Source of the DNA: Acidobacteriota bacterium
Lineage (GTDB): Bacteria; Acidobacteriota; UBA890; WLXD01
Assembly: GCA_965248695.1 (NCBI GenBank)
Contig: CBDFKD010000002.1
Coordinates: forward strand, 2,336,001 to 2,400,000
Direction of reading: 5' to 3'
Length of the DNA stretch: 64,000 nt
How positions within the stretch are numbered: the first letter of the stretch is position 1; every line of letters begins with the position of its first letter. This document shows, piece after piece, positions 3,887 through 50,667 of this stretch. A program made the position numbers and the translations under genes. The notes beneath the pieces were generated by a model. The model did no database searches, was not told where the DNA came from, and saw only the letters and a list, made by a program, of their open reading frames with translations.

Positions 3887-4043
3887 TCGGCGGGGATCGG
3901 TCTACTCGATGGGCGACATCGACCTGCCACCGATCAAGCCCCCTTGTAGGGAAGCTTGCGGTAGCCTTGGATTCCGTGACCCGGTGGCGCGTCAGCCACC
4001 GGCGATCAGCGACGCAGTTCGGCCTGTATACCGAGGGCAGGGG

Positions 4044-5408: not shown

Positions 5409-5415
5409 GGCCGCG

Positions 5416-6336: not shown

Positions 6337-7487
6337 TTCGCGAGCAGCAGTCGCCTGCCGACGAGCTTGCTCGTATCAGCGTCGGGCTTGGGAACGAACT
6401 TGTTTACCCAGCCACCGGTGTAGTTGGCGATGTACAGGTTGCCGTCTTCGTCCAGATCGAGCTGATGCGGACGCGACAGACCGCCCGGCCAGGTCGCCTG
6501 GCCAAGCGCGGCAGCCTGGCCGTAGGTGCCCCAGTGGTACTGGAGCACGCCGTCACGGTCGTACTGGAGGATCCGGTTCAAGCTCGCGTCGATCACCCAT
6601 ACGGAGCCGTCTTCATCGATCCAGATGTTGACCGGGTCGAAGATGCCCGGCCACTCCTCGATGAACTCGCCCTCGTGAGTGAAGATCTGGATGCGGTGGT
6701 TCTGCCGGTCGCCAACGTAAACGCGGTCCTCATCGACGGCGAGACCGTGGAGAAGGTCGAACTCCCCGGGGCCGTCTCCCAGGCCTCCCCACTGCAACAC
6801 GCGCTCGCCGGCCTCGGTGTACTTGACGATGCGTGAGTTCCAGTACCCGTCGGCCAGCATGAAGCTCCCATCGGGAAGGAAGGCGAGCTTCGACGGCCAT
6901 CCGTAGGTATGCGGACCCCAGTCGAACCGGGCGCGAGCCTCCTCTTCGGTCTTGGGATGATCGCGCTCGCCGAGCTGCATCACCAGCTCGCTGCCGTCAT
7001 TGGAGAACTTCAGGACCTGGTGGTGGCCCTCGCCGCCGCCGCTGTCGATGACCCAGATGTGCCGTTCCGGATCGTAGGGGTTGATGTAGACCTGATGCGG
7101 CAACGTCAGGATCGAGTCCCACTGGCTCCACTGCTCCACGATGTTGCCGTTGCCATCGGCGACGACGATGAAGTTCGTGCGGCGGAGTCGATCATCCCTG
7201 GGCTGACTGCGATCCGCTGGCCAGTCGCCGCGCGTGACCACGATGATGCGGTCGGAGTGGTCCACGGCGACCCCGCACACCTGACCCCACGACCACTCGT
7301 CGTCATGGTCGGGCGCCTGCTTCCACCAGCCTTCGACGACGTCGTAGGGACCCGTCCTGTCGTCACCGCCCTTGATGATCGAGCCTTCGGAGGCCGGAGC
7401 CGGCTCCGCTTGGTCGTCGCCCGCGCAAGCCGACAAGACCAGGACGAAGCCACACGCAACGACGAGCGCGACGGATCGACACCTCAC
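6333..7487 (-). CDS. NHL-repeat beta-propeller lipoprotein (peptidyl-alpha-hydroxyglycine amidating lyase-like)
   Basis: Lipobox LSAC; ADGYWNSRIVKY, GPGEFDLLHGLAVD and VYVGDRQNHRIQIF NHL motifs. Confidence 0.85.
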   Translation of the reverse strand: MRCRSVALVVACGFVLVLSACAGDDQAEPAPASEGSIIKGGDDRTGPYDVVEGWWKQAPDHDDEWSWGQVCGVAVDHSDRIIVVTRGDWPADRSQPRDDRLRRTNFIVVADGNGNIVEQWSQWDSILTLPHQVYINPYDPERHIWVIDSGGGEGHHQVLKFSNDGSELVMQLGERDHPKTEEEARARFDWGPHTYGWPSKLAFLPDGSFMLADGYWNSRIVKYTEAGERVLQWGGLGDGPGEFDLLHGLAVDEDRVYVGDRQNHRIQIFTHEGEFIEEWPGIFDPVNIWIDEDGSVWVIDASLNRILQYDRDGVLQYHWGTYGQAAALGQATWPGGLSRPHQLDLDEDGNLYIANYTGGWVNKFVPKPDADTSKLVGRRLLLAN

Positions 7488-34773: not shown

Positions 34774-35796
34774 CTATTCGTCGAAGACGTCCAGATGGTG
34801 GGTATAGGCGAGCCCCTGATGCTGCATGGCCCGACGGTAGTTCACCGCAACGGCATCGAACTTCAGATGCAGCTCGTCGGCCAGATCGAAAGGAACCTGA
34901 TCCGGGCGCTGCGACTCGACGATGACCTGATCCTGCCCGAAGATCGTCGCTTCGAAGTCCTGCAGAACGGTGTCCGGCTCGTCCAGGTCGTAGTTCCGGC
35001 CGATGATGCAGTAGCCGCGACATTGCTCCCCGGAGATAGGCTGCGAGGCGAAGAAATACACCATCCCCTTGGAACCACCCCATCCCAGTCGGAGCACGAT
35101 GGTGTAGGGCAGATGCAACTCATACAGGCTGTGCCGCTCGGGTTTGACGATGTCGTCATTGGCAAACACTGGAAAGTCATCTGAATTAGCAGCCTCGGGG
35201 CGCACGACCTCCTAGTGCAGGACGTGGCCGCGGATCTCGACGTCATGATCTGGCACCAGCGGGCGCGATGGGTCTCCCAGCAGTCCTGGATGTACCCACG
35301 GAAAGTGGCCGAAGTCGGTGAAGTTCTCTACCTGCCTGGAGGCATCGCTGGCCCAGCTGAACGGCCCGGTATTGACCACCTTCCAGTCAGCGTCTTCGAG
35401 CTCGGGAATCTCCGGCAACGCGTAGACAGGATCAGCCAACGACACCCAGATGAGCCCGTATCGCTCAAGGCACGTGTAGACCGGCGTCCGCGCCTTGGCC
35501 GGTATCGTTTGGTGCTTACTCTGCGGAATGTGCACACAGGCGCCTGAGGCATCGTATTTCCACGCATGGTACGGACAGACGATGCAGTCATCCTCGAGCC
35601 GGCCAAGGGAAAGCGCCGTGCCGCGGTGTATACAGACGTCGCGCATGGCCCGCGGGATTCCGTCTGTCGTACGCCAGACCACAACCGGCTCTTCCAGCAA
35701 TGTGACAGACAGTGGTACCTCGGCTGAGACCTCGTGCGCGTAGCTCACCGGATGCCAGCATCCGTAGAGGTTGTCCGGGAGGGCTCGGCGGTGCAT
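34774..35796 (-). pseudogene. VanA/NdmA-like Rieske demethylase interrupted by an in-frame TAG
   Basis: CIH...CPYH Rieske motif, ENFTDFGHFPWVH and QDQVIVESQRP. The two ORFs share a frame across TAG 35212-35214 (HVLH*EVVRPEA). Confidence 0.8.
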
Positions 35797-35931
35797 TTCG
35801 GGTCTCCAAACAGCGGATTCTCAGAGGCCACTTGATATGGGCTGGCACTTGGTACCTCATTGAACCGATGCTGACAAGATGTCGTGGTCGGTGCCTCGTC
35901 AGCGGACACTTCGGCTCCAGGAGGAAGGACG

Positions 35932-36459
35932 ATGAGGTGGATGCGCGTTTCCCTAGTACTGGTCGCGATTGCTGGGGCGGTCGTCCTCATCGCGGCGCTG
36001 CGCGGCCCTGCGCCGGAGTCTCCGGTGCAGCCAGCACATATCAACGCGGCGAGTGTCCCCTGGCACGTCTCCGAGGCCGGTGAGCGGCGCTCGAACAGAA
36101 TCATCGGCAGCAACCTGATTCCTGACGACGACGTACACGTCGGACTTTGGGAGCTCGCGCCGCGGGCGATCTACGCTGGCCATGTTCATCCGGTGCCGGA
36201 GTTCTACGTCCTCATCGAAGGACACGTCGAGTGGACCCTCGGCGATGAAACGTTCGTTGCCGAACCCGGCGAGTTCATCTACATCGCCCCGAGCACGATG
36301 CATCGGATGGTGAACGTGACAGACGGCGTAGCGCGGGCGGTCTGGGGCCGCTGGGCTCCGAACGGCGACCGCAGCGTGTACGAGGGCGAGTCTCGGTATG
36401 TGGAGCCGATCCCGGAACAACCGCCGGATGCAGTGTTGTTCCCGACACCTGGACAGTAA
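35932..36459 (+). CDS. Cupin-domain protein with N-terminal signal/anchor; motifs resemble DMSP-lyase cupins
   Basis: HVHPVPEFY...PGEFIYIAPSTMH cupin motifs; RBS AGGAGG. Confidence 0.8.
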   Translation: MRWMRVSLVLVAIAGAVVLIAALRGPAPESPVQPAHINAASVPWHVSEAGERRSNRIIGSNLIPDDDVHVGLWELAPRAIYAGHVHPVPEFYVLIEGHVEWTLGDETFVAEPGEFIYIAPSTMHRMVNVTDGVARAVWGRWAPNGDRSVYEGESRYVEPIPEQPPDAVLFPTPGQ

Positions 36460-36588: not shown

Positions 36589-38598
36589 GTGAAGGAGACC
36601 GACCGCAGGCTCGGAATGGACCGCGATATCACGCGCCGCGATTTCCTCAACGGCACCAGCGTTGCGATCGGCGGCTCACTGCTGGCCGCCGGAACTGCCA
36701 ACGCATCTCCCGCCGCAGCCGAGGCTACGGCAAAGCAGACAGCGCTGCCCTACCCCCCGACCTGGGAAGTGGGCAACAACTACCCACCCAGGCTCACGGG
36801 CATGCGCGGCAGCCATCCGGGCTCGTTCGAGGTGGCGCATGCGGTACGCGATGGTAAGCGCTACGACGACGTCACCGACCTCGACGAGACCTACGATCTA
36901 ATCGTCGTCGGCGGCGGGCTCAGCGGGCTGGCGGCGGCGTACTTCTTCAAGAAAGCGCTGCCGGACTCGAAGGTCCTTATCCTCGACAATCACGACGACT
37001 TCGGCGGGCAAGCGAAGCGCAACGAATTCGAGGTCGACGGCCGCACGGTGGTTACCTACGGCGGCAGCGTGTACATGACGGGCGCCTACACCCACGAGGC
37101 CATGGACATGCTCGCGGACATCGGCCTCGATTGGGACCGATTCAATCGCACCACCGCGACGAGCTACGAGCTGTATGGAGATGGCTACGGAGGCATCGGC
37201 TCGATGGGCCTCGAGGCGGGCGTGCTGTTCGATCGCGAGACCTTCGGGGAGGATCACCTCGCAGTCGGCGAGCCTCAGGGCCGCGCCAGCGCCGCGGACT
37301 GGGAGCAGTTCCTCGCCGGCGCGCCGCTTTCTGCGCAGGCGAAGCGCGACATCGTCCGGTTGTACACCGAGAACGCCGACTATCTGCCGGGCCTCAGCCG
37401 CGAGGCGAAGATCGCCAAGCTACGGCGAATCAGCTATCAGCAGTACATTCTCGACGTGGTCGGTGTGACGCCGGATGTCGTTCCCTACTTCCTGAAACAG
37501 ACGCTCGGCGGGCCGAACGGCGCCGCCGGGATCGATTCGGTGAGCGCCTACGTCGCTTACCGACACAACTCGCTCCCCGGCTTCGGCGGCTTGGAGCTCG
37601 GCGATCGCCCGCCCCGCAACTTTCTCGGCGCTCGCAGCCCGGTCGAGCGCATCCACTTCCCCGACGGCAACGCCGGGCTCGCCCGACTGATCGTGCGCTG
37701 GCTCAACCCCGCCGCGCTGCCCGGCAGCACGATGGAGGACTCGGTCACCACACCGGTGAGCTACGAGAGGTTGGACCGGCCCGAAGACGATGTCCGTATC
37801 CGGCTCAACAGCACCGTGATCGACGCCACCCACGTGGGCGAGCGCCGCACCGCCAGCGAGGTAGCCGTCACCTACGTCAACGGCGACAAGGCATACCGCG
37901 TGCGTGGCAGCACCTGCGTGATGGGCTGCTACAACGCCGTGATTCCGCACCTCATGCGAGATCTACCATCGGAGCAGAAAGAAGCGCTCCACATGGCGGT
38001 GCGCACGGCGCGCGTCTACACCAACGTGCTGGTCCGCAACTGGCGCCCGTTCGTCAAGCTCGGCATCAACGGCGCTCACTGCCCCGGCAGCTTCCACCAG
38101 TTCTTCAGCCTCAGCTGGACGACCCGGATCGGTGACTACCGCTATACCGAGTCGCCCGACGAGCCGATCGTCGTGCGCATGAACCGCGATCCGATCGCGC
38201 CGGGTCTCAGCGCTCGCGACCAGTTCCGCGCCGGGCGCGAGAACATCCTCGCGACCTCCTTCGAGGACTACGAGCGCAACGTCCGCGACCAGCTGAACCG
38301 CGCGCTGGGGGCGGGCGGATTCGACGCCGCCGACGACATCCTGGCGATCACCGTCAACCGCTGGCCGCACGGCTATGCCGGCGCCGCCAACGAGCTCTAC
38401 GACCCTGAATGGGGCTACGACGAGCCCCCATGGGTCAAGGGACGCAAGCGCTTCGGCCGCATCACGATCGCCAACACCGACGCCGCCGCTATCTGCCTCG
38501 CCCAGGCGGCATTCGACCAGGCACATCGGGCCGTGAGTGAGCTGCTAACCGACGTGCTGCGTCCGGAGTTCCAGTACCCCTGGGCGGAGAGGACGTAG
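36589..38598 (+). CDS. Spermidine dehydrogenase SpdH-like flavoprotein, Tat-exported
   Basis: ITRRDFLNG, YPPRLTGMRGSHPGSFE, GGGLSG, DNHDDFGGQAKRNE, HFPDGNA and TVNRWPHGYA motifs. Confidence 0.85.
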   Translation: MKETDRRLGMDRDITRRDFLNGTSVAIGGSLLAAGTANASPAAAEATAKQTALPYPPTWEVGNNYPPRLTGMRGSHPGSFEVAHAVRDGKRYDDVTDLDETYDLIVVGGGLSGLAAAYFFKKALPDSKVLILDNHDDFGGQAKRNEFEVDGRTVVTYGGSVYMTGAYTHEAMDMLADIGLDWDRFNRTTATSYELYGDGYGGIGSMGLEAGVLFDRETFGEDHLAVGEPQGRASAADWEQFLAGAPLSAQAKRDIVRLYTENADYLPGLSREAKIAKLRRISYQQYILDVVGVTPDVVPYFLKQTLGGPNGAAGIDSVSAYVAYRHNSLPGFGGLELGDRPPRNFLGARSPVERIHFPDGNAGLARLIVRWLNPAALPGSTMEDSVTTPVSYERLDRPEDDVRIRLNSTVIDATHVGERRTASEVAVTYVNGDKAYRVRGSTCVMGCYNAVIPHLMRDLPSEQKEALHMAVRTARVYTNVLVRNWRPFVKLGINGAHCPGSFHQFFSLSWTTRIGDYRYTESPDEPIVVRMNRDPIAPGLSARDQFRAGRENILATSFEDYERNVRDQLNRALGAGGFDAADDILAITVNRWPHGYAGAANELYDPEWGYDEPPWVKGRKRFGRITIANTDAAAICLAQAAFDQAHRAVSELLTDVLRPEFQYPWAERT

Positions 38599-38632: not shown

Positions 38633-40159
38633 TCAGTCTCCGGACTTGATGACCTCGTTCATGTACCAGTTCATGAACCGGGACGGGCCGCCCTCGTGCT
38701 TGGAGTAACGACCCGCGCCGTACGCACCCGACTCGACGCCCGCGTGGTTGTTAGCGGTGATCCAGATGTCCTCCTGGATCGTGACGTGCCACAGCGCTTT
38801 GACATTGTCGGGGTCGAAGTCGCGACCCTCGACGGCGTCGGGATGCACCAGCCAGACGATCTCGCAATCGGTGAACTTCTCTGTCCGCGGCGTGAACCGG
38901 GCCACCGCAACGTGGTCGTCGTAGCACTGCCAGTAGCCGGTCGACTCGGCCGTCGTGACCACGTTGGTCTCGTTGTTCCACTCCTGGATGTTGGGCAGGA
39001 GGATCGAGACCGCCTGGCCGTCGAGCGACCCGCTCACGTAACCGGGATTCAGCATGCCGCCGAAGCTCGGGTAGTTGTCCCCTCCCATGCCTTCGCCCAT
39101 GCCCTCGCCGGTCTGCGGACGACGGTTACGCCACGCCTTTTCCGGAACCCACGCGGCGACTGCAGACGCACGCTCCCGTCGCTGTTCCTCGGTGACCTCG
39201 TTGCTCCAGTTGTGGGTGGTGACCAACGATGTGTGCGACGGGCCGCAGTGGTAGCACTCCTTGAAGTTTTCCAGCGCCAGCTTCCAGTTGGCGTTGATCG
39301 CGTAGTACTCGCGCGCCGCGACCTTCAGGTCCGCGAGGCTGTACTTGTCGGCAATGCCACGCAGGCGGCTGACGGCCGTGTCGAAGTCCGGCGGTGTATC
39401 GGACTGCGACAGGTTGACGAACACCTGCCCCGCCTCCACCCGTAGGTGACACGGGGTCAACCCGTTGTCCGCCGGATCGAAGTCATCCTGCATGCCGTAG
39501 GCGTAGATGAGGCTGCCCTCGGTGTCGTAGGTCCACGCGTGGTACGGGCACCGGAACACTGGCGAGCTGCCGCTCTGGCCGAGTTGCTTGACGGACAGGC
39601 GCGGGTCACTCGGCTTCTCGTCGGCGTCGTGGCGGCACAGCCGCGATCCGCGATGTCGGCAGACGTTGTAGAAGCCGCGGATCTCGTTGTCCTGTCCACG
39701 CACGATCAGAATCGACTCCGAACGCCCGAACTCAAATACGTAGAAGTCTCCCGGGTTCGGAATCCGGCTCGCCTGGTCGGTGTACTGCCAGAAGTTCTCG
39801 GCAACGAACGCCTCGTCGCCGTCGAAGTGATTCGCCTCCACGTAGTACTCGGCCGGGATCGTCGTACCTTCCTTCCAGCCGTTGACGCTCGGCCGCTTGG
39901 CGACCGGCTCGGTCAGCAGCGGCGCGCCGTAGCCGCCGTAGCCGATGTTCTCGTTCGGCAGCTCGACCCGCCCTCCGCGCGCATAGGTCGCCGTGCTCGC
40001 CGGCGCCGAGGACGGCGTGGCTCCGAGCAACGACTTCGGCAATGCGACGGCGGCCGTACCAGCAGCCACCGACGTCTTCGCGAAGGCGCGCCGGCTCAGC
40101 TTCGTTTCAACAGCTCCTGTCTCGACACTGCTCGTCTCGCCCGAGTCTCGCTTGCTCAT
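38633..40159 (-). CDS. Rieske non-heme iron oxygenase alpha subunit (GbcA/Stc2-like) with Tat signal, paralog A
   Basis: RBS GGAGG and ATG 40159; SRRAFAK leader; CRH...CPYH; NWKLALENFKECYHCGPSH; TIQED. Confidence 0.9.
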   Translation of the reverse strand: MSKRDSGETSSVETGAVETKLSRRAFAKTSVAAGTAAVALPKSLLGATPSSAPASTATYARGGRVELPNENIGYGGYGAPLLTEPVAKRPSVNGWKEGTTIPAEYYVEANHFDGDEAFVAENFWQYTDQASRIPNPGDFYVFEFGRSESILIVRGQDNEIRGFYNVCRHRGSRLCRHDADEKPSDPRLSVKQLGQSGSSPVFRCPYHAWTYDTEGSLIYAYGMQDDFDPADNGLTPCHLRVEAGQVFVNLSQSDTPPDFDTAVSRLRGIADKYSLADLKVAAREYYAINANWKLALENFKECYHCGPSHTSLVTTHNWSNEVTEEQRRERASAVAAWVPEKAWRNRRPQTGEGMGEGMGGDNYPSFGGMLNPGYVSGSLDGQAVSILLPNIQEWNNETNVVTTAESTGYWQCYDDHVAVARFTPRTEKFTDCEIVWLVHPDAVEGRDFDPDNVKALWHVTIQEDIWITANNHAGVESGAYGAGRYSKHEGGPSRFMNWYMNEVIKSGD

Positions 40160-40231
40160 CACATCCTCCATCGGCCCAACCGGGAGCACCGTTCGCTCCC
40201 TTCGTTGTAGCGAGCGTTCCACAACACAGTG

Positions 40232-40244
40232 CCATTGACAATGG
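40232..40244. promoter_or_regulatory. Perfect palindrome CCATTG-A-CAATGG containing TTGACA
   Basis: Lies in the divergent intergenic region between Rieske paralog A and the serine hydrolase gene. Confidence 0.45.
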
Positions 40245-40289
40245 TGTGGCGTCTTCCTTGCTGGAGTTGGTCTCTTGGACCGGGACGCC

Positions 40290-40318
40290 ATGGACCTCTG
40301 GGAGCCACTTGCTACACT
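40290..40318 (+). promoter_or_regulatory. Degenerate promoter motif ATGGAC-N17-TACACT
   Basis: Same spacing and position (about 44 nt before ATG 40362) as the TTGGAT motif copies. Confidence 0.4.
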
Positions 40319-40361
40319 CCGGGCGCAGCCCGGCTCACGGACAGTGGCAAGGGAGGAGTCG

Positions 40362-41699
40362 ATGGAGTTCGCACGCTTCCGGACAGCCGCAGGGTTCACG
40401 CTCCTCGCGGCAGGCCTACTGACTGCCTGCAGTGCGCCTGGAGATGACTCTCCCGAGCCGTCGGCGCCTCGACAGACGGCCGAGTTCGAGGCCACGTCGA
40501 CGGTGGAGGAAACGCTCCGAAGACACCGTGCGATTCCAACGGAAACGGCGTGGTGGGACGCGGTCGGTGAGCAGCTCGCCTGGAGTCACCGCAACGTCCA
40601 CCAGATCGCACCGACGGTAAACGTCTACCGGGACGGCCAGGTGAAGCCCCTGGCGCGGCGCCCGATGGCGGAGATCGCTCGGTTCCCGGTACAGACGCCC
40701 GATGGAGACCTGGGCTACCGCGATTTCCTCGACAGCGAGCACTCGGCCACCATGGGCATGGTGATCGTGCATCGCGGCGACATCGTGTTCGAGGCCTACC
40801 CGCGCATGCAGCCTTACGAGAAGCCGATCTTCTGGTCGGTGACCAAGGTGTTCACCTCCACCGTGTTGGCCATCCTCGAGGATCGCGGCGAGGTCGACGT
40901 CAGCCAGCCGCTGGAAACCTACATTCCGGAGCTGGAAGGGACCCAGCTGGCGCGCATCACGGTGCGCAACGCGCTCGACATGGCCTCGGGCATCGACTGC
41001 TCCGACGCCTACTCCGATGCGGCATCGTGCTGGAACCACCAGGAAGCGACCCTCGGCAACGGACTGGCGGTGGACATTCCGGAGGACAACCCCTACGACA
41101 TGCTGGTCAACTTCGACTACGGCTTCTGGTCTGAGCAGGGAACCGGGTTCGACTATGCCAGCGCCAACACGGTGCTGATCGGGTGGCTGATCGAGAAGGT
41201 CACCGGCATGCCGTTCCAGGACGCGCTCACACGCGAAGTGTGGAGGCATATCGGCGCCGAAGCCGACGCTTCGATCTTCGCCGGCCGCAACGGGATTCCG
41301 CTGGTGGCGGGCGGGCTACTGGCGAACGTGCGTGACGTGGCGCGCTTCGGCGTGCTGTTCACGCCCAGCCACCGGATGGTCTCGGATCGCAAGATCGTCT
41401 CCGATCGCTATGTCGATCTGATCCTGCACGGCGGCCGACCCGAGTTGCTGGAGAACTCCCGTACTCCGCGTGACACCGACGGCGTGCGGCACAACGTCTA
41501 TCAGTGGGACGTGGTGTTCGACAACGACGACTTCTACAAGGGCGGCTGGGGCGGCCAGGGCCTGTTGATCAACCCCGAGCGCGATTACGTGGCCGCGTAC
41601 GCCGGCTACATCAAGGATGCCGAGGGCAGCGAGATGAACCCACTGTCGGTGCTGCGGCAGGTGCTCGAAGGCGTTTTCGGTACGGAGACCTCACCGTAG
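40362..41699 (+). CDS. Serine hydrolase (NylB/beta-lactamase class C-like) lipoprotein
   Basis: Lipobox LTAC; WSVTK, LDMASG, FDYASANT and GGWGGQ motifs. Confidence 0.88.
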   Translation: MEFARFRTAAGFTLLAAGLLTACSAPGDDSPEPSAPRQTAEFEATSTVEETLRRHRAIPTETAWWDAVGEQLAWSHRNVHQIAPTVNVYRDGQVKPLARRPMAEIARFPVQTPDGDLGYRDFLDSEHSATMGMVIVHRGDIVFEAYPRMQPYEKPIFWSVTKVFTSTVLAILEDRGEVDVSQPLETYIPELEGTQLARITVRNALDMASGIDCSDAYSDAASCWNHQEATLGNGLAVDIPEDNPYDMLVNFDYGFWSEQGTGFDYASANTVLIGWLIEKVTGMPFQDALTREVWRHIGAEADASIFAGRNGIPLVAGGLLANVRDVARFGVLFTPSHRMVSDRKIVSDRYVDLILHGGRPELLENSRTPRDTDGVRHNVYQWDVVFDNDDFYKGGWGGQGLLINPERDYVAAYAGYIKDAEGSEMNPLSVLRQVLEGVFGTETSP

Positions 41700-41700
41700 C

Positions 41701-43103
41701 GTGATGAGGAACGGTCGGATCAACCACTTCGTTGTCGGCGCCGTCGCGTTGGCGTTGCTGCCGATTGGCACCTCGGCAGTGGGCCAGGACCAATGGTCAC
41801 GCTTCCGCGGTCCGCGGGCGGGTGACGTTTCCGACGATCCCGCTCTGCCCGACACCTGGAGTGAGACGGACAACGTCGTTTGGAAGATCGACGTTCCCGG
41901 GCAGAGTTGGAGCTCGCCCGTGGTCTGGGGCGATCATGTCTTCATCACCTCGGCAATCAGCTCGGGCGAAGAGCCCACTCCGTTGCCGGGTCTCTACGAT
42001 CCGGGAAACGCTAATGGGGCGTTCAGGGCATCGGCGGAACATCGCTGGATGGTGTACGACGTCGATTTCGCTACCGGACAAGTGAACTGGGAGCGGGAGC
42101 TGCACCGCGTCGGCCCGCCGATCGCCAAGCACATCAAGAACAGCTTCGCGTCGGAAACCCCGGTCACCGATGGCCGGCACCTGTACGTGTACTTCGGCAG
42201 CATCGGTCTTGTCAGCTCCTTGAACATGAGCGGGGAGACCGTCTGGACCAGACAGATCGGCGCGTTCGAGACCACGCTCGGGTTTGGCACCGCCGCCTCG
42301 CCGGCCCTCCACGAGGGCCGCCTCTATATTGTCAACGACAACACGACCCAGTCATTCATCGCCGCCTTCGATACGGAGACGGGCGAGGAGATCTGGAGGG
42401 TGCCTCGGGCTGAGCGTGGGCAGAACTGGGCTACCCCGTTCATCTGGGAAAACGAGCTCCGCACCGAGATCGTTACGGCAGGCAGCCAAGGAGTCCGCTC
42501 GTACGATCTCGATGGCAACCTGCTGTGGGAGATCGACGGGATGTCGGCGCTCACCGTTCCGACACCGTTCGCCAAGCATGGACTCGTCTACATCGCCTCC
42601 GGCTACCCAGGGGCACCGCTTCGTCCGGTTTACGCCGTTCGTCCCGGCGCATCGGGCGACATCACGCTTTGGCGCGACGAACAGGGTGGCCTGTCGACCG
42701 GATTCCCGGGCCCGTTGAGATCGTCCGAGCACGTCGCCTGGTCGTACCCACTGCTGGGTACGTACAACACCTCGGCGCTCGTGTACGGAGACTACTCTTC
42801 TACACCTTGCTCGACCGGGGGTTCTTCCTCAGCCACGACGCGCGGACAGGCGAAGAAATCTACGGCCGCCAACGTCTCGAGATCGGCAACGGCTTCACCG
42901 CCTCGCCCTGGGCATACAACGACAAGATCTTCCTGCTGAGCGAGGACGGCGACACCTACGTGGTGCAGGCAGGGCCGGAGTTCAAGATCCTCGGCAAGAA
43001 CTCGCTCGACGAGATGTCGTTGGCAACGCCTGCCGTCGTCAGCGGTAGCCTGATTCTCAGGACGAAGACGAAGCTCTACCGGATTGCGCGAGACGCGCCG
43101 TGA
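41701..43103 (+). pseudogene. PQQ-binding-like (BamB-type) beta-propeller, frameshifted near 42796
   Basis: WSRFRGP, WSSPVVWG and KNSFASETP motifs; ORFs 41701-42939 and 42525-43103 join at VYGDY/FYTLLDRG. Confidence 0.8.
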
Positions 43104-44116
43104 CGAGCCGACAAGTGCGCCTCATCGGCCCTCGAGTGATGCTTGCCCTGGCGCTCGTTGCCACTGCGACGGGTGGCGCCAAAGCATCGCCGCAGGGGGT
43201 AAGCCTCGAACGGGTCGGCTCGATTCCCATGCCCGCGGAGCGTCGGCAAGGGCGTCCGAGGAGCCTCGTGAGGATGCAAGACGACTTCGCGTACGTGTCG
43301 CTCGGCAGGACCTTCATGATCTTCGAGGTCTCGGATCCGGCTGCACCGGAGCGGCTGGGATCGTTCGAGTTCCCCGAGGAGATCTGGGGGTTCAGGCTCG
43401 CCGACTCGCGTGCGTACGTGGGCGCCAACTTCTTCGGGCTCGGCATCCTCGATATCTCGGATCCGTCGGCGCCGAAGCTCGTAGGCTGGCACGACACACT
43501 CGGTCAGGCGAAGATCGGGGCGGTCTTCGGCAACAAGGTCGCTGTCATCGATCACATGGAAGGCCTCGTGATGCTCGATGTGTCGAACGAGGCGAAACCG
43601 ACCGTGGTCGGCTCGTTCTTCCTCGACGGCTACGCTCGCGATGTCGTGACGCGGGGGTCGCTGGCGTATGCGGTCGACTCGCCTACGGGGCTCTATCTGT
43701 TCGATCTCGCGAAGCCCGGCCCGCCGGAGCCGGTCAGCGTGCTCCACGCTCCTGGTGCGCCCCATTCGATCGAGGTCTCGTCGCCGGTGGCTAGTGGGGA
43801 GCCGACTCTTTTGTGCGGGGCGGGCGGCGGCAATCTCCAGGTGTATGACGTGTCGAATCCGATGGCGCCCGTGAAGACGGCGACGTTCGAGACGCCCGGT
43901 CGTGCCGAGCGCGTCGCGCTGGAGGGCACGCTCGCCTACGTTGCCGACGGCCAGGCCGGAGTTCAGATCGTGGACCTTTCGACGCCTTCCGAACCCAGAT
44001 CGATCGGCTCCTACGAGACTGCAGGACCGGCGCGCGATGTTGCCGTGACGGGTTCGCACGTCTTCGTCGTCGTGGGCGGTGAGGACGCAGAAGTGTTGAT
44101 TCTGAGACGGTCCTGA
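43100..44116 (+). CDS. LVIVD-repeat protein
   Basis: Repeated units such as AYVAD-GVQIVDLS-P-P; signal peptide. Confidence 0.85.
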   Translation: MTSRQVRLIGPRVMLALALVATATGGAKASPQGVSLERVGSIPMPAERRQGRPRSLVRMQDDFAYVSLGRTFMIFEVSDPAAPERLGSFEFPEEIWGFRLADSRAYVGANFFGLGILDISDPSAPKLVGWHDTLGQAKIGAVFGNKVAVIDHMEGLVMLDVSNEAKPTVVGSFFLDGYARDVVTRGSLAYAVDSPTGLYLFDLAKPGPPEPVSVLHAPGAPHSIEVSSPVASGEPTLLCGAGGGNLQVYDVSNPMAPVKTATFETPGRAERVALEGTLAYVADGQAGVQIVDLSTPSEPRSIGSYETAGPARDVAVTGSHVFVVVGGEDAEVLILRRS

Positions 44117-44334
44117 CGAGGCGGTGGGCGGCGCTTCGAATGGTGCACGCACGGGCCCCTGTAGTGTTGCGGATGAAAACGACTTCGCCGTCGTACGACT
44201 CTCTTTCACGAAGGTCACCGCCGTGGGAACCTAGGCCGGTTCGCTCATTGAGACCGATGACTTGCAGACAGGGCAGCGTTGAGCCACGAAAGACCGCGCA
44301 ACGCTGAGGCGCATCGAAGCGCCGGAGGAGATCC

Positions 44335-45759
44335 ATGAAGAAGAAAGACACGAAAGCGCCGACGGGCAACGAGGGCATCAGCCGGCGGGACTTCGCCAAG
44401 ACCTCGGTAGCCGCCGGCGCCGCCGCCGTAGCGCTGCCGGGATCCGTGCGCGGCGAGATGGTCAGGGGAATGTCCCCGACGGGCACCGGGAAGCCCCATT
44501 CGGGCAACTGGGCCAGCGGACTCACGATCCCACAGGAGTACTACGTCGACGCGGCGCGCTACGTCGCCGACGAGAAGTACCTGTCCGAGAACATGTGGCT
44601 GTACGTCGACCACGAGTCGAGCATCCCGGACCCCGGCGACTTCTTCGTCTACGAGTTCGGGCGCGCCGAGAGCATCCTCATCGTTCGCGGTCAGGACAAC
44701 GAGGTGCGGGCGTTTTACAACGTCTGTCGCCATCGCGGCTCGCGGCTCTGCCGCCACGACGCGGATTCGATTCCGAGCGACCCGCGCCTGTCGGTCAAGC
44801 AGCTCGGACAGACGGGCAACTCGCCGGTGTTCCGCTGCCCCTACCATGCCTGGACGTACGACACCGAGGGCAGCCTGATCTATGCCTACGGCATGCAGGA
44901 AGACTTCGACCCGGCCGACAACGGGTTGGTTCCCTGTCACCTGCACATCGAGACCGGCAGCATCCACGTGCACCTTTCGCCCGGGGCCGAAAAGCCGGCC
45001 TTCGAGGACGCGATGGCGAGCCTCCGCAACCTCGGCGAGATGTACGGCATGGCCGGTCTGAAGGTCGGCGTCCGCGAGAAGTACCACGTCAAGGCCAACT
45101 GGAAGCTGGCGTTCGAGAACTTCCTGGAGTGCTATCACTGCGGTCCATCGCACACGTCCCTGGTGACGACGCACCACTGGGATGAGGAAGGCACTCCCGA
45201 GGTGTGGGAAGAGCAATCCGCCAAGGTCCGCGATTGGGCGCCCGACTTCCAGCGCCAGCGCTGGGGCGAGGAGGCCGAGGGTGGCATGGGCGGCATGAGC
45301 GGCGACGACGGCGATTCACCGTACCCGTCGACGTCCGGGATGCTCAACCCCGGCTTCGTGACCGGCTCGCTCGACGGCAAGGCCGTCGCGCCACGGCTGC
45401 CGAACCGCCCCGAGTGGACCCACGAGTCGCGAGTTGCGACGACGGGGCACACGATGGGCTACTGGCAGTGCTACGACGACCACATCATGGTGGCGCGCTT
45501 CACGCCGCGTGACGTCGACAGCACCGACGCCGAGATCATCTGGCTCGTACACCCCGACGCTGTCGAGGGGCGCGACTTCGACCCCGAGAAGGTCAAGGGC
45601 CTGTGGCACGTCACCATCCAGGAAGACGCCTGGATCACCGTCAACAACCACGACGGCATCCGCTCGGCGGCATACGGATCGGGACAATACTCCCGCAACG
45701 AGCGCAGCCTGGTGAACTTCATGGACTGGTACATGAACGAGGTGGTCCCGAACAGCTAG
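44335..45759 (+). CDS. Rieske non-heme iron oxygenase alpha subunit (GbcA/Stc2-like) with Tat signal, paralog B
   Basis: RBS GGAGGAG; SRRDFAK leader; CRH...CPYH; NWKLAFENFLECYHCGPSH; long stretches identical to paralog A. Confidence 0.9.
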   Translation: MKKKDTKAPTGNEGISRRDFAKTSVAAGAAAVALPGSVRGEMVRGMSPTGTGKPHSGNWASGLTIPQEYYVDAARYVADEKYLSENMWLYVDHESSIPDPGDFFVYEFGRAESILIVRGQDNEVRAFYNVCRHRGSRLCRHDADSIPSDPRLSVKQLGQTGNSPVFRCPYHAWTYDTEGSLIYAYGMQEDFDPADNGLVPCHLHIETGSIHVHLSPGAEKPAFEDAMASLRNLGEMYGMAGLKVGVREKYHVKANWKLAFENFLECYHCGPSHTSLVTTHHWDEEGTPEVWEEQSAKVRDWAPDFQRQRWGEEAEGGMGGMSGDDGDSPYPSTSGMLNPGFVTGSLDGKAVAPRLPNRPEWTHESRVATTGHTMGYWQCYDDHIMVARFTPRDVDSTDAEIIWLVHPDAVEGRDFDPEKVKGLWHVTIQEDAWITVNNHDGIRSAAYGSGQYSRNERSLVNFMDWYMNEVVPNS

Positions 45760-45932: not shown

Positions 45933-46312
45933 ATGTTCAGGTCAGTCCTCGTCTTGGTCGTCGGTACCGTCATGCTCCCCGGGTGCGCATCAGCCCTGAG
46001 ACCTCGATTGGCGATCTCCCGAACATCGTCATTCTGTTCGCCGACGACCTCGGCTATGGCGACCTAGGCGTCTACGGCAACCCGACCATCCGAACCCCCA
46101 ACCTCGATCGCATGGCGGCCGAGGGCATGAAGTTCACACAGCTGTACGTCGGCGCCTCGGTGTGCACACCGAGCCGAGCGGCGCTGATCACAGGACGCCT
46201 GCCGATCCGAAGCGGGATGGCCAACGACCGCTTCCGGGTGATCTTCCCTCCCTCCGAGGGAGGCCTACCGGACTCCGAGCTCACGATCGCGGAGGCGCTC
46301 AAGAGCGCCGGG
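45933..46312 (+). pseudogene. Truncated arylsulfatase (N-terminal fragment)
   Basis: Lipoprotein leader from ATG 45933 is 1 nt out of frame with [15 protein letters not shown]...[12 protein letters not shown]. Similarity ends at ALKSAG, before the usual GKWHLG motif. Confidence 0.75.
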
Positions 46313-46432
46313 TGCCTGCAGGATGGGCCGACCCCGGTCGCCGTCTCGATAGGCGGCCCAGGCCAGCAGGCCATCTCGTGCGCGTTCTACGATAGCCGCA
46401 AGATCGGCCCGGCACTGCACAGGGAGAGAACA

Positions 46433-47302
46433 TTGAGCGGACTCACCGGCATCAACCTGGCGATGCAAACCCCGATGCATGCCGACGGCAGCATCGACTA
46501 CGCACGCTGGGAAGAGCTCATCGACATCTACATCGACGCCGGCGTCCACGGTCTGGTACTCGGTGCCGGCACCGGACAGCATCCCTACCTGACCCGAGAG
46601 GAATGCAATCGGCTTTACGAGCTCGGCGCCGGGCGTATCGAGGGCGGCTGCAGCCTGATTTGCCAGACCTCCGCACTGGTGTTCGACGAAGCCGTCGAGC
46701 GCAGCAAACATGCTCAGGGGCTCGGTGCCAATGCGCTGATGATCCTGCCGCCCTACCTCGAAGGCCCCGAAGACGACGACGGGTTGTTTGCCTTCTACGA
46801 GGCCATCGATTCCGCGGTCGAAACCGACATCATCGGCTACAACATCCCGCAAACCGCCGGCATCGGAATCTCCGTCGAGCTGTTCAAACGTCTCAACCAG
46901 CTCGAGCACTTCAACTACATCAAGGACAGTGCCGGCAACCTGGCCACCCACCAGGAGTACCTGGCCACCGGATATGGCGTCTTGAACGGTTGCGACCCCA
47001 ATACCGTCTTCAGCTTCATCGCCGGGGCGCCGGGGTGTATCTGGGGCGGCGCGAACTACATGCCACGTGAGGCCGTCCGCCTGTTCGAGCTGGTAGCCGG
47101 CAACGACATCGCCGGCGCCATGGAACTGTGGTCGCGGATGATCCCGTCGCTGCTCTGCATCTGGAGCGGCAACTACGTTCCCAAGGTCAAGGCGGCCTCC
47201 CGGCAGCGTGGCTTCGACGGCGGTCCCGTGCGCGCGCCGCTGCAAGAGCTAACCGTCGACGAGGCGCGTGAGCTCACCGCCTCTCTCGAGCCGCTGGGCT
47301 GA
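46433..47302 (+). CDS. Dihydrodipicolinate synthase / N-acetylneuraminate lyase family enzyme
   Basis: RBS GGAGAG and TTG start; GTGQ, GYNIP and YIKDS (Schiff-base Lys) motifs. Confidence 0.85.
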
Positions 47303-47389: not shown

Positions 47390-47425
47390 CCGTTGGATCT
47401 CGACCGCGACGGCGGTACGCTGCAG
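47390..47425 (+). promoter_or_regulatory. Promoter-like motif, copy 5 (TTGGAT-N17-TACGCT)
   Basis: ccgTTGGATctcgaccgcgacggcggTACGCTgcag, about 70 nt upstream of ATG 47492. Confidence 0.6.
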
Positions 47426-47491
47426 GCGCTCAACGACCTGCTTCGGGAACCCCATGGAACCCGATACCTTCGCGAGAACAGCGAGGCGGCT

Positions 47492-49309
47492 ATGAAGGCA
47501 ATTCGGATCCTGACCCTGATACTTCTTGTTCCGGTCTCTGCAGTCTTGGCGCAGCAGTCGCGCATGCCCGCGACGTCCGCGCAGGTCGCCAGGCCCGGAG
47601 GGACGCTGCCGGGCAACGTCGAGATCTCGCTCGTCAAGATCGCCGACGGCTTTCAGGACCCGACCAATGTTGCCAGCGCCGGGGACGGCACCGGGCGGAT
47701 CTTTGTCGTCGAGCGCGCCGGCCGGGTCCGGGTTGTGCACCGGGACGGGCGCGTGCAGGAAGAGCCGTTTCTCGATCTCACCAGCATCAATCCGTTGGGA
47801 AGCGACGTGCAGACGGGCTTCGTCGAGCAGGGGCTCTACGCCATCGCGTTCCATCCCGAGTTCAGCGACAACGGGTATTTCTACGCCCACTACGCGTCGT
47901 TGCCGTTCAACGGAGACGGAGTGATCGTGCGCTTTCAGGTCGACCCGAAAAGCCCGGACACCGTGACGGCGGAGCGCACCCGCCAGACCGCGAAGGTCCT
48001 GATGCGGATCGAGCAGCCTTACTACAACCACAACGGGGGGCAGATCGAGTTCGGCCCCGACGGCTATCTCTACATCGGGTCCGGGGACGGCGGCTGGGAA
48101 GGCGATCCGCTGGAGGCTGGGCAGGATCTCTCGACGCTGCTCGGCAAGATGATCCGGATCGATGTCGACACCTCCGACAACGACCGCATCCCCTACAGGA
48201 TTCCCGAGACGAACCCGTTAGCGGGCGCCAACGACGAACGGCTGATGCAGCTCTTCGGAATCTCGGAGCTCGCTTTCTCGAAGATCAAGACGCGCGGGCG
48301 CCCAGAAATCTGGGCGTTCGGCGTGCGCAACCCGTATGAGTTTTCCTTCGACCTGAAGACGGGCGATCTGTACATCGCCGACGTCGGACAGAACCACTGG
48401 GAGGAGATCATCTTCCAGCCCTCGGCGAGCCGTGGAGGGGAGAACTATGGCTGGCCGAAGATGAACGGAACGAAGTGCTACCCCATGACAGGCGCGACCG
48501 ATGAGTGCGCGCAGGTGGGATTGCTGCCGGCAGCGGAGTATCCGCACGAGGTTCCCTACCCGGGAGCAGCACCGCTCACGGGAGGCTTCGGTTGCTCGGT
48601 GCAGGGACTGGGGGTGGCGAACTACGGCGGAATGAACGGCGTTTATCTGGTGGGCGACTGGTGCTCCGGGCGCGTCTTCGGTCTCGGATGGGACGGCGAG
48701 CGCTGGCAGCTGGAGGAGCTTCTGCAGACGAACCTGCAGTTCACCGCCGGAGGCTATGACGAAGACGGCTTCGTCCTCGCCGTCAACTGCAACTGCTTCT
48801 ACACGTCTGACCGCGGTCCCGCCGCGAATCCGCCGGGCGCGCTCTGGCGCATCGTCCCTTCGAGCGAGGTCGGGCCCGATGCCGAAGTCGCGAGAGTGGT
48901 CGCAACAGATTCAACGGGTGACGTGGCAGGCGGCCCCCTGGTCTTTCGGAACGCCCTGGACAACACGCCGCTGGATTTCAACAGCGAGCCGGAAGTAAGC
49001 CTGTCGGCGACGGCGCGGCAATTCCGGGATTCCGGAGTGAATCCGTACAAAGGGAATGCGACCGCGGTCGCCGAGGGAAGGACGGCCTATCTCCAGGAGT
49101 GCGCCTCCTGTCACCTGGAGGACGCTACCGGGCGCATAGGGTCGAACCTCGTCGACGATCAGTACGCTCACGCGCGCGTCTCCACGGACGTCGGGATGTT
49201 CGAGGTGATCTACGCCGGCGGGGTGGGCGCGATGCAGCCCGCCGCCGGACGCATCACCCTCGACGAGATGCTGAAGATCATGGCGTTTCTCGACTCGTTG
49301 CAGAGATGA
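47492..49309 (+). CDS. PQQ-dependent sugar dehydrogenase (sGDH/GSDH type) fused to a C-terminal cytochrome cL (MxaG-like) domain
   Basis: Signal peptide; EQGLYAIAFHP, NHNGG, GDGG, GVRNP and ADVGQ motifs; C-terminal CASCH...TDVGMFEVIYAGG...TLDEML. Confidence 0.85.
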   Translation: MKAIRILTLILLVPVSAVLAQQSRMPATSAQVARPGGTLPGNVEISLVKIADGFQDPTNVASAGDGTGRIFVVERAGRVRVVHRDGRVQEEPFLDLTSINPLGSDVQTGFVEQGLYAIAFHPEFSDNGYFYAHYASLPFNGDGVIVRFQVDPKSPDTVTAERTRQTAKVLMRIEQPYYNHNGGQIEFGPDGYLYIGSGDGGWEGDPLEAGQDLSTLLGKMIRIDVDTSDNDRIPYRIPETNPLAGANDERLMQLFGISELAFSKIKTRGRPEIWAFGVRNPYEFSFDLKTGDLYIADVGQNHWEEIIFQPSASRGGENYGWPKMNGTKCYPMTGATDECAQVGLLPAAEYPHEVPYPGAAPLTGGFGCSVQGLGVANYGGMNGVYLVGDWCSGRVFGLGWDGERWQLEELLQTNLQFTAGGYDEDGFVLAVNCNCFYTSDRGPAANPPGALWRIVPSSEVGPDAEVARVVATDSTGDVAGGPLVFRNALDNTPLDFNSEPEVSLSATARQFRDSGVNPYKGNATAVAEGRTAYLQECASCHLEDATGRIGSNLVDDQYAHARVSTDVGMFEVIYAGGVGAMQPAAGRITLDEMLKIMAFLDSLQR

Positions 49310-49347: not shown

Positions 49348-50667
49348 TCACACCACGGCGATCTCGATCGGCAACTTGGAAAGCAAGCGCGCCCCGTCTT
49401 GCTCGAAGACGACGGTCTTCATCAGTGACTCGCCGAGGACGCTCTCATAGTTGGTGACCATCCCCTCCTGGAACACCCAGTTCTCTGGATTCTCGCCCAA
49501 GCCAATTACGCTGAGCGTCTCGCTGTCGCTGGCACGACCAAACGACCAGACGAATGGGCCGACCCAATCCGGCGGGAAGCTGATGCCCATGTCGTAGCCA
49601 AAGCCCTCCGGGTCCAGGCCGACGTCGTCGTAGTACTCCCTGAGCGCAGTGCAGACGTCGGCAATGGGAGTGCCGGCGCGACCGTGCTCGCCGAGCACCG
49701 CGAACGAACCGGCGTTCTTAGCGTAGGACTCGACGGCCTCTGCCGGCGGATCTCCCAGCCAGTAGGTCCGCGACGTGTTGACGTGGTAGCGGTGCGCCAC
49801 CCCGCAAAGGTCGGCGAACAGCGCATCGCCTTGCTCCAGGCTCCTGCGGGACGGACACGCATGCCAGCCTCTGGGGTTGGTGACCTCGCAGATCAACGCC
49901 GGAGTCCCGCCGCCGGCAGCAAACATTGCCCGCAATGCCTCACCGTACATCTCCAGCTCGGTAACCCCGGGGTGCAGGGCTTCGCGGATGGCCTCATGGC
50001 CAATGTCGGCAATCCGCCCCGCGTCTTCCATGACGGCGATCTCCTCGGACGACTTGACCAGGCGAACCTCGCGCATCACGTCGCTACTGTCGACGACGCT
50101 GCAACCGGCGTTGGTGAAGGCTGCCTCGAGTTGCGCCGCCAACACCGGAGGAGGCCTGTAACTCCAGCGGTCGATCCCGACGGTGCCCCCAAGCCATCCT
50201 TCTGCCCGCAGCTCATCGATGACGAACTCCATGCCGCCTCGCATGACACGGAAGTCCTTCACCACGCTGATGGCGTCCAGCGTGGCTCGATGGGGACCGA
50301 CGTCGAAGTGAATCAGCTTGTCGTGGTCTACATGTACGGCAGTCCCGGAGAGCGGCCGCCAGCCCTTCGGCGAGTTGGCCCGGTACCAGCCGAGGATCAT
50401 GCCGTGCAGGTAGCACATCCCCTCCGGCAACATCACCCACAGGAGATCGATGTTGTCCTGCGCCATGCGCTCGCGCACGCGTCGTAGGCGGTCTTGGTAC
50501 TCGGCTTCCGAGAACGCCGGGCGCAGCTCGGCGACGCCCACCGGGTTGCGAGCTTGCCGCGCTGCGGCGATCTCGCTGGCGGTCGCCGAATCGCCACATC
50601 CGGCCGCCATCGCCGCTGCCGCAGACGAGCCCAGGAAAGCCCGGCGGTTGATTGCACGCTTTGTCAT
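49348..50667 (-). CDS. M24 family creatinase/ectoine-hydrolase (DoeA)-like enzyme with Tat-lipoprotein signal
   Basis: NRRAFLG...AAGC leader; FSEAEYQDRL, VRLVKSSEEI, RYHVNTSRT and GYDMGISFPPDW motifs. Confidence 0.8.
   Translation of the reverse strand: MTKRAINRRAFLGSSAAAAMAAGCGDSATASEIAAARQARNPVGVAELRPAFSEAEYQDRLRRVRERMAQDNIDLLWVMLPEGMCYLHGMILGWYRANSPKGWRPLSGTAVHVDHDKLIHFDVGPHRATLDAISVVKDFRVMRGGMEFVIDELRAEGWLGGTVGIDRWSYRPPPVLAAQLEAAFTNAGCSVVDSSDVMREVRLVKSSEEIAVMEDAGRIADIGHEAIREALHPGVTELEMYGEALRAMFAAGGGTPALICEVTNPRGWHACPSRRSLEQGDALFADLCGVAHRYHVNTSRTYWLGDPPAEAVESYAKNAGSFAVLGEHGRAGTPIADVCTALREYYDDVGLDPEGFGYDMGISFPPDWVGPFVWSFGRASDSETLSVIGLGENPENWVFQEGMVTNYESVLGESLMKTVVFEQDGARLLSKLPIEIAVV

Follow-up and report, generated by a model that had tools for sequence, protein, structure and literature searches.

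How might a Rieske oxygenase work outside the cytoplasm, and what would supply its electrons? The question is raised by a 64,000-nt stretch of a genome labeled Acidobacteriota bacterium (GenBank assembly GCA_965248695.1, contig CBDFKD010000002.1, positions 2,336,001 to 2,400,000; hereafter, the window), which carries two genes for Rieske oxygenases, each opening with a leader of the kind recognized by the twin-arginine translocation (Tat) system. To our knowledge, all Rieske oxygenases characterized so far have been treated as cytoplasmic or plastid stromal and as tied to reduced nicotinamide nucleotides (NAD(P)H) via a flavin reductase. An earlier interpretation of the window made without database searches (the sequence-only reading) had proposed that the pair act outside the cytoplasm, on quaternary amines or similar osmolytes, with an electron source other than NADH. 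Leader conservation, a clade not coupled to NADH reductases, and recurrent heme-protein neighbors all lend support to that proposal. With moderate confidence, we regard the two proteins as periplasmic amine-type Rieske monooxygenases from a clade of single origin, receiving electrons from heme proteins instead of NAD(P)H; of this account, we infer export itself, which partners pass electrons and in which direction, and the class of substrate.

Both genes are real and encode Rieske and mononuclear-iron oxygenase alpha subunits with a full set of metal ligands. Their positions in the window, with lengths in amino acids (aa), are as follows.

38633..40159, minus strand: paralog A, Rieske oxygenase P0001, 508 aa, without internal stops, matched by Pfam, member of the Tat-leader clade
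39233..39259, minus strand: ECYHCGPSH of paralog A, with the bridging Glu and two His ligands of the mononuclear iron
38768-38779, minus strand: IQED of paralog A, which holds the Asp iron ligand
44335..45759, plus strand: paralog B, Rieske oxygenase P0002, 474 aa, without internal stops, matched by Pfam, member of the Tat-leader clade
45127..45153, plus strand: ECYHCGPSH iron-site motif of paralog B
45616-45627, plus strand: IQED of paralog B, which holds the Asp iron ligand

The reading frames and good ribosome binding sites described for these genes are present as claimed: the translations are stop-free, and GGAGGA (paralog A) and GGAGGAG (paralog B) lie 5-8 nt ahead of ATG. An alternative database gene call for paralog A, P0010, starts 10 codons upstream, and the pair of arginines (RR) is N-terminal under both starts. 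The paralogs are 58-59% identical, and paralog B has a 93% identical ortholog in a related metagenome-assembled genome (MAG; locus L013). Pfam recognizes a Rieske domain (45.0 bits in A and 52.8 in B; cutoff 20.3) and a Ring_hydroxyl_A domain (93.6 and 103.1 bits; cutoff 24.9) in each. The claimed metal ligands were likewise found, CRHRGS...CPYH, ECYHCGPSH, and IQED being kept in both proteins, with the Rieske ligands at CRH 167-169 and CPYH 204-207 in paralog A and at CRH 131-133 and CPYH 168-171 in paralog B. Across a 68-row alignment of the clade, the Rieske CxH...CxxH ligands are invariant (68/68); the same holds for E301, H304, and H309 of the bridging Glu and 2-His-1-carboxylate site, and its D464 is at least 90% conserved.

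Translation also yields the RR leaders that had been claimed for the two proteins.

40037..40099, minus strand: twin-arginine leader core of paralog A, LSRRAFAKTSVAAGTAAVALP, residues 21-41
44377..44439, plus strand: twin-arginine leader core of paralog B, ISRRDFAKTSVAAGAAAVALP, residues 15-35

Sequence comparison showed the leader to be conserved and confined to one clade. We assembled 121 clade proteins, comprising the best 120 of 4828 database homologs and the two window proteins, with P0010 left out as a longer start of P0001. The motif [STNKGDHQ]RRx[FL][ATS] occurs within the first 80 residues in 113 of them; five of the eight that miss it begin within the hydrophobic stretch and appear to be gene calls cut short, and the other three begin close to the mature domain. 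The 68-row alignment shows no variation at R23 or R24. RR is followed in 109/113 proteins by 13 or more uncharged residues, a stretch whose median hydropathy of 1.4 is low, like that of Tat signals. Beyond it, the first charged residue is Lys or Arg in 78/113, and a linker of varying length (median 58 aa from RR) leads to the conserved TIPAEYY that starts the fold. Both window leaders satisfy a TatFind-like rule (SRRAFAK and SRRDFAK, followed by 13 and 16 uncharged residues with mean Kyte-Doolittle hydropathy of 1.3-1.4). An AlphaFold2 model of paralog A, with a predicted local distance difference test score of 77.9, has residues 1-90 disordered except for a helix at 23-34, which is the h-region, and the genome encodes two TatC proteins (215 and 161 bits). 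Judged from these sequence features, the leader looks like a cleaved Tat signal.

Profile searches bore out the Tat prediction in part. Paralog B passes NCBIfam TIGR01409 (17.5 bits; cutoff 16.7), but paralog A reaches only 9.4 bits, and neither passes Pfam TAT_signal (PF10518; cutoff 22.7), where they score 19.9 (B) and 10.4 (A) and where none of four leaders tried succeeded. The scores under the cutoffs weigh against export, as do a paralog in the same genome (C2:2817845) that lacks the RR pair and the three database homologs that begin near the mature domain.

Phylogeny gave the leader a single origin. In a tree of 102 rows, from which the leader columns dropped out because they fell under the fill threshold, the 42 leader-bearing rows all formed one branch with support of 100 and a stem length of 0.74; leaderless, unnamed proteins of ~400-425 aa branch next to it as the nearest outgroups. 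The same branch is marked by the spacing between the two Rieske ligand motifs, CxH and CxxH, which is 34-35 aa in 121/121 clade members and 16-20 aa in 84/98 leaderless relatives. Between the motifs lies a conserved insert of ~17 residues, RHDAD..PSDPRLSVKQLG, that is strictly co-distributed with the leader and shares its origin. Alignment located it in both window proteins.

39560..39634, minus strand: clade-specific insert between the Rieske ligand motifs of paralog A, RHDADEKPSDPRLSVKQLGQSGSSP
44752..44826, plus strand: clade-specific insert in the Rieske domain of paralog B, RHDADSIPSDPRLSVKQLGQTGNSP

AlphaFold2 confidence is below 50 at the insert, which the model does not place. Found only in this clade and located beside the Rieske cluster, the insert is a candidate docking site for a new electron donor.

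The label "GbcA/Stc2-type" that the pair had been given stood for Stc2 and not for GbcA. The model NF058607 for GbcA (glycine betaine monooxygenase) is the best-scoring NCBIfam model and covers both paralogs over nearly their full length, but at only 220.7 (A) and 227.9 (B) bits against a cutoff of 670. That cutoff was reached by one of 106 leaderless representatives (P0226, 678 bits), with P0189 at 663 bits; these true GbcA representatives sit elsewhere on the tree than the leader-bearing clade, and we rejected the identification of either paralog as GbcA. The best matches among solved structures are the uncharacterized PDB 3N0Q (E = 1.9e-55) and Stc2, the stachydrine/proline betaine demethylase of Sinorhizobium meliloti (~2.4e-50; PDB 3VCA, 4QUP/4QUQ/4QUR), and fold comparison gave template modeling (TM) scores of 0.79-0.81 on these targets at 27-30% identity. 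Both share with the paralogs the Rieske CxH/CxxH motifs, an N-x-x-E-C-Y-H-x(4)-H iron motif, and a C-terminal E-D carboxylate, with no beta subunit implied. They differ in having no N-terminal leader, so that alignment begins at about residue 58-60 of P0002, and in lacking the 17-residue insert. Carnitine monooxygenase CntA/YeaW (PDB 6Y8J) has the same fold and belongs to the same quaternary-amine Rieske group (E = 3.3e-29, TM 0.68-0.75) but is more distant, at 20-22% identity and with a sequence match limited to the N-terminal half. Stc2 is cytoplasmic and NAD(P)H dependent; CntA is cytoplasmic, with the reductase partner CntB. No beta-subunit gene was present among the Pfam-scanned oxygenase neighbors, and by sequence, fold, and alpha-only architecture the proteins belong to the Stc2/CntA-type group V. 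Quaternary amines or other osmolytes as substrates are a guess from this family resemblance, for which the context is the solved relatives Stc2 (an N-demethylase), CntA, and 3N0Q and neighboring genes for amidohydrolases and for creatinase-like, arginase-family, and SpdH-like enzymes (SpdH, spermidine dehydrogenase).

A group-V-type (Stc2/GbcA/CntA-like) oxygenase of this clade would receive its [2Fe-2S] cluster in the cytoplasm and then be exported folded to the periplasm, and insertion of the cluster before export is what would make Tat necessary. Folded export of a [2Fe-2S] Rieske domain via Tat has a precedent in respiratory complexes, as described in the accessible part of PMC8432897. The Rieske domains of bc1 PetA and the arsenite oxidase small subunit resemble the present proteins in this respect but differ in being small electron-transfer subunits with a high-potential cluster and no catalytic mononuclear-iron domain. 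In the openly accessible literature we found no description of a Tat-exported or periplasmic Rieske oxygenase; the matches were bc1 Rieske proteins and unrelated Tat substrates.

We sought a conventional reductase at three scales: beside the two genes, around the clade as a whole, and throughout the source genome, a 5.89-Mb assembly that is 96% complete. The claim that no FAD/NAD reductase (FAD, flavin adenine dinucleotide) adjoins either gene required narrowing. No GbcB-type reductase lies beside A or B, yet an FAD enzyme with a Tat leader ends 35 bp from paralog A; as this neighbor (36616-38598) is not an NAD(P)H:ferredoxin-type reductase, the narrower claim holds. No reductase family, including the Pyr_redox_2 type, appeared among 128 Pfam-scanned neighbor proteins (13 + 60 + 55), and homologs in the clade are not coupled to NADH reductases. 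Genome-wide, a GbcB-type reductase, that is, one combining FNR and Fer2 domains, is absent: the single FNR-like NAD_binding_1 (PF00175) match, at C2:4993431, stands apart from any Fer2 domain or oxygenase, being neither fused nor adjacent to one; the 14 Fer2 matches all lie elsewhere, none within ~26 kb of an oxygenase. The absence of an adjacent reductase, to which the sequence-only reading had pointed, is nonetheless no distinguishing trait of the clade, and we discarded it as a clade mark. Leaderless relatives have a Fer2 reductase within two genes at 1/35 loci (a scan of 121/141 neighbor proteins, with L102, L103, L120, L141, and L147 left out and L113 without a gene call), so a missing neighbor means little. 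Instead, 17/35 leaderless loci carry GCV_T-domain proteins, mostly ~810-aa fusions with a DAO (FAD oxidoreductase) domain, and aminotransferases also occur; these neighbors fit cytoplasmic N-methyl amine catabolism.

These results bear on the idea that the leader does not serve export at all, being vestigial or a chaperone-binding or membrane-association tag, and that the enzymes are cytoplasmic and share an unlinked ferredoxin and reductase. The sub-cutoff leader scores, the rarity of adjacent reductases in leaderless relatives, and the 14 Fer2-domain genes are all compatible with it. We nevertheless consider it improbable, because RR is invariant and the h-region conserved in a clade that is otherwise ~45-60% identical, cleaved Tat signals typically have a basic c-region residue and a variable Ala/Pro/Thr-rich linker, as here, and the genome has only one FNR-like gene. 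In addition, the genes around the oxygenases overwhelmingly encode signal-bearing periplasmic enzymes, among them an exported family that carries the same kind of leader.

That family is represented in the window by the FAD enzyme next to paralog A.

36616..38598, plus strand: SpdH-like FAD/heme b amine dehydrogenase P0272 with a Tat leader, 660 aa, matching PDB 7D9F at E = 7.6e-131

Its frame is open from 36490, and its 3' end converges with that of paralog A. The match to SpdH of Pseudomonas aeruginosa (PDB 7D9F-7D9J) is near full length (query 48-685), at ~45-50% identity by eye over the aligned stretch, and the two proteins have in common an RR leader, an FAD-binding GxGxxG motif (Pfam NAD_binding_8), and both heme His residues. 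The leader of the window protein scores 19.9 bits with TIGR01409, above the 16.7 cutoff. Counted on an alignment to His54 and His562 of SpdH, the heme ligands H75 and H585 are invariant in 54/54 SpdH-like rows. The accessible part of PMC12564564 describes SpdH as carrying FAD and a surface-exposed heme b ligated by His54 and His562, with electrons flowing from FAD to heme and from there to cytochrome c in vitro, ferricyanide, or an electrode; its reaction products are dealt with in PMC7576179 and PMC9397018, as far as these are accessible.

SpdH-like genes were the commonest neighbor family when the genes within six positions of each paralog were clustered. The genome holds 18 oxygenases of the clade and 27 SpdH-like gene calls, seven of which lie within 300 bp of an oxygenase; by our own arithmetic, random placement among 4570 genes would give ~0.2 such adjacencies. 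(Gene calling was scripted and crude, using an open reading frame (ORF) and third-position GC content (GC3) filter, and can miss small or atypical genes.) The adjacency recurs at 6/20 loci of related MAGs, in the distant genome G254, and at metagenome loci L075 and L082 (54% and 65% GC), and a more distant amine-oxidase-type flavoprotein takes the SpdH-like position at L072. Among 65 leaderless loci there was no such adjacency, the closest case being a 30%-identical gene 2 kb away at L109. Some oxygenase/SpdH-like pairs are in tandem, with gaps of 9-85 bp. Identities within adjacent pairs correlate (r = 0.65, a value reached in 27/5000 permutations), and there are clear partner swaps, which indicate that the link has been re-made and not merely inherited. 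Nearly all 27 SpdH-like proteins have an RR leader after a conserved "LGM.R.I.RRDF" N terminus. That one genome keeps 27 divergent paralogs makes varied substrates likely, and the expansion suggests many different amines. The openly accessible literature, insofar as it could be consulted, contains no description of a pairing between SpdH and a Rieske oxygenase.

Cytochromes form a second class of heme-protein neighbor, in keeping with the cytochrome source suggested earlier. A small monoheme cytochrome c (CxxCH, 156-191 aa, mostly with a lipoprotein-type signal) lies directly beside an oxygenase at eight loci: six of the 15 metagenome loci of the clade (L072, L074, L077, L079, L080, and L085) and one each in G038 and G254 (L069 and L070). 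The eight proteins are 38-60% identical to one another, and all exceed the Pfam Cytochrome_CBB3 cutoff. At the G254 locus (L070), genes for an SpdH-like protein, two oxygenases, and the cytochrome c follow one another on one strand. In the source genome, an SpdH-like gene at 5.25 Mb has a homolog of the small cytochrome 89 bp downstream.

Other potential redox partners appeared near clade members. At L071 (4355-7008, plus strand), a leader-bearing oxygenase is followed by a [2Fe-2S] subunit (Fer2_2) and a molybdopterin subunit of the aldehyde-oxidase/isoquinoline-oxidoreductase type that has an RR leader, a possible further periplasmic electron source. Directly upstream of an oxygenase/SpdH-like pair, L043 has tandem paralogous proteins of 423 and 428 aa (6594-7862 and 8003-9286, plus strand) with one CxxCH each and no Pfam family; with similar 472- and 490-aa CxxCH proteins, also without Pfam matches, at L035:15457-16872 and L036:1816-3285, they may constitute an undescribed heme protein family.

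From these neighbors, a working model can be drawn. In the periplasm, the oxygenases would hydroxylate or N-dealkylate amine-type substrates that enter through the outer membrane, drawing the two electrons needed per turnover from periplasmic heme proteins instead of an NAD(P)H reductase. The first candidate donor is the SpdH-like flavocytochrome b amine dehydrogenase, one of which stands beside paralog A and which would pass electrons from FAD to its surface heme b; the second is the small, mostly lipoprotein-type cytochrome c, which would serve in other lineages and might act as an intermediary. The proposed layout would be analogous to that of classical two- and three-component Rieske systems, with the flavoenzyme in place of the reductase, a small one-electron carrier in place of the ferredoxin, and an alpha-only terminal oxygenase. 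It would differ in that electrons come from an amine or the respiratory chain and not from NAD(P)H, in that the carriers hold heme and not flavin or [2Fe-2S] centers, and in its periplasmic location. Tentatively, and with less conviction, we extend the model to a self-contained NAD(P)H-free periplasmic system in which the SpdH-like enzyme oxidizes an amine C-N bond and delivers the electrons, directly or via the lipoprotein cytochrome c, to a Rieske monooxygenase that acts on the same molecule or one related to it. In such a closed loop, dehydrogenation would cover the electron cost of oxygenation, the insert would be the docking site, and the 18 + 27 paralogs would amount to a combinatorial toolbox for nitrogen scavenging.

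Several observations count against donation by heme proteins. Oxygenase-type Rieske clusters usually lie near -150 mV, and His/Met cytochromes c are usually of positive potential. The catalytic onset of SpdH, at -0.14 V vs silver/silver chloride (Ag/AgCl) in the accessible part of PMC12564564, converts by our own calculation to a value slightly positive vs the standard hydrogen electrode. Transfer from such hemes to a usual Rieske cluster would thus be uphill unless the cluster is tuned. The pair in the window is a loose one, for paralog A and the SpdH-like gene are convergent and hence not co-transcribed, and paralog B has no SpdH-like gene or other flavoprotein within 5.7 kb. Twenty of the 27 SpdH-like genes do not stand beside an oxygenase, and the SpdH family is much wider than the oxygenase clade, so most of its members work without one. 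Neither window paralog has the small cytochrome c beside it, nor was it found at any of the 42 loci from the genus of the source genome; the search took in 44 loci (L013-L033 and L046-L068), and its sole matches, L050 and L051, are the G254 and G038 loci already counted. In the source genome, CxxCH is weakly enriched among neighbors (7/148 vs 88/4570, p = 0.023, with non-independent counts). Finally, the adjacency of SpdH-like and oxygenase genes could reflect consecutive steps of one pathway and not electron transfer.

This last point leads to an account in which the oxygenases are exported and the SpdH-like enzymes and cytochromes are only pathway neighbors, the dehydrogenase and the oxygenase working in turn on intermediates from one amine substrate, with electrons coming from another periplasmic source, such as quinol via a membrane cytochrome or pyrroloquinoline quinone (PQQ) quinohemoproteins. 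Catabolic genes for one substrate often cluster, and the unpaired SpdH-like genes and the convergent pair in the window fit this account as well. PQQ dehydrogenases, some with cytochrome c domains, also recur near the oxygenases, and one lies two genes downstream of paralog B, followed by a hydrolase.

47393..49309, plus strand: secreted GSDH-type PQQ dehydrogenase with a C-terminal cytochrome c domain
49348..50667, minus strand: creatinase/prolidase-type M24 hydrolase with the RR leader MTKRAINRRAFLGSS... (TIGR01409 14.0 bits, below the cutoff)

The dehydrogenase scores 106 bits with Pfam GSDH and 25.9 bits, under the cutoff of 27, with Cytochrome_CBB3, and contains a CASCH motif; it provides a periplasmic redox context, and the hydrolase a periplasmic nitrogen-compound context. 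Even so, we consider mere pathway neighborhood unlikely. The L070 operon and the tandem pairs with 9-85 bp gaps suggest a closer unit, the clade-specific insert by the cluster suggests an altered docking partner, and the exposed heme of SpdH has no assigned physiological acceptor in the accessible part of PMC12564564.

It is also conceivable that the exported enzymes use no protein donor and either run a peroxide shunt with H2O2 from the periplasm or use the same fold for chemistry other than oxygenation. Rieske oxygenases can perform the peroxide shunt in vitro, and the canonical reductase is missing here. We judge this to be very improbable, since the Rieske ligands, bridging Glu, and 2-His-1-carboxylate are invariant or nearly so, which argues for normal cluster-to-iron electron delivery, and the SpdH-like neighbors keep the heme ligands of a dehydrogenase and are not H2O2-forming oxidases. 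A donor-free enzyme would also leave the recurrent cytochrome c neighbors without explanation. A complex prediction that paired SpdH-like residues 56-648 with paralog A residues 100-505, supplied as alignments, returned no answer (score 0.00) and was counted neither way.

Should heme-fed periplasmic oxygenation hold, Rieske oxygenases would gain both a compartment and a class of electron donor that are new to the family, and a physiological acceptor would be identified for the surface heme of SpdH-type dehydrogenases. How soil Acidobacteriota attack nitrogen-rich organic compounds ahead of uptake would become clear too. Biocatalysis could benefit from a nicotinamide-free oxygenase that runs on a cheap amine or on an electrode-competent flavocytochrome. 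The hypothesis can be tested directly with three soluble proteins.

The clade is patchily distributed and strongly expanded in the source genus. Matches at E <= 1e-90 occurred in seven of 301 sampled genomes of the phylum: the source genome (G000), all four others of its genus, and the distant G038 and G254; the six other genomes of the family had none. The relatives of the source genome are MAGs labeled Acidobacteriota. RR is present in 17 of its 18 clade paralogs, including one at L009 (G000:C2:3037331-3038836, minus strand) interrupted by a single in-frame TGA, which could mark a pseudogene or be a selenocysteine codon. Insertion sequence (IS) elements (HTH_Tnp_1 + rve pairs and Mutator-family transposases) flank L034, L037, L038, L040, and L042 in this genome, and the RR-less paralog is located between IS elements, which may have driven the expansion of the paralogs.

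Between paralogs A and B, the window contains three genes for proteins of secreted type, assigned by Pfam and by an N-terminal hydrophobic segment.

40275-41699, plus strand: beta-lactamase-fold hydrolase
41701-42939, plus strand: PQQ_2 beta-propeller protein
43100-44116, plus strand: LVIVD-repeat protein

Further neighbors of the oxygenases include Tat-leader amidohydrolases, creatinase-like M24 and arginase-family enzymes, peptidases, PQQ dehydrogenases, sulfatases, and TonB-type receptors.

Other genes in the window deserve mention. An unrelated VanA/PAO-type Rieske oxygenase without a leader (34774-35796, minus strand) is split into two ORFs, one of 194 aa with the Rieske domain and the start of VanA_C and one of 143 aa with the rest of VanA_C; the break, at ~35205-35212, is probably a frameshift, pseudogene, or sequencing error. 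Directly downstream of paralog B, 45983-47302 (plus strand) joins ~110 residues of a sulfatase N terminus to a full DHDPS-family domain by Pfam and gives the appearance of a truncated sulfatase that was fused to an aldolase-type gene or runs into it. Immediately upstream of the SpdH-like gene, 35884-36459 (plus strand) encodes a small cupin with an N-terminal hydrophobic segment that scores 37.2 bits with Pfam DMSP_lyase (cutoff 27). Farther away, an SBP56 selenium-binding-protein/methanethiol-oxidase-type gene (3909-6248, plus strand; 700.9 bits) is followed by genes for a plant-type Fer2 ferredoxin, the only Fer2 gene in the window and 33 kb from paralog A, and a coenzyme A (CoA)-binding protein.

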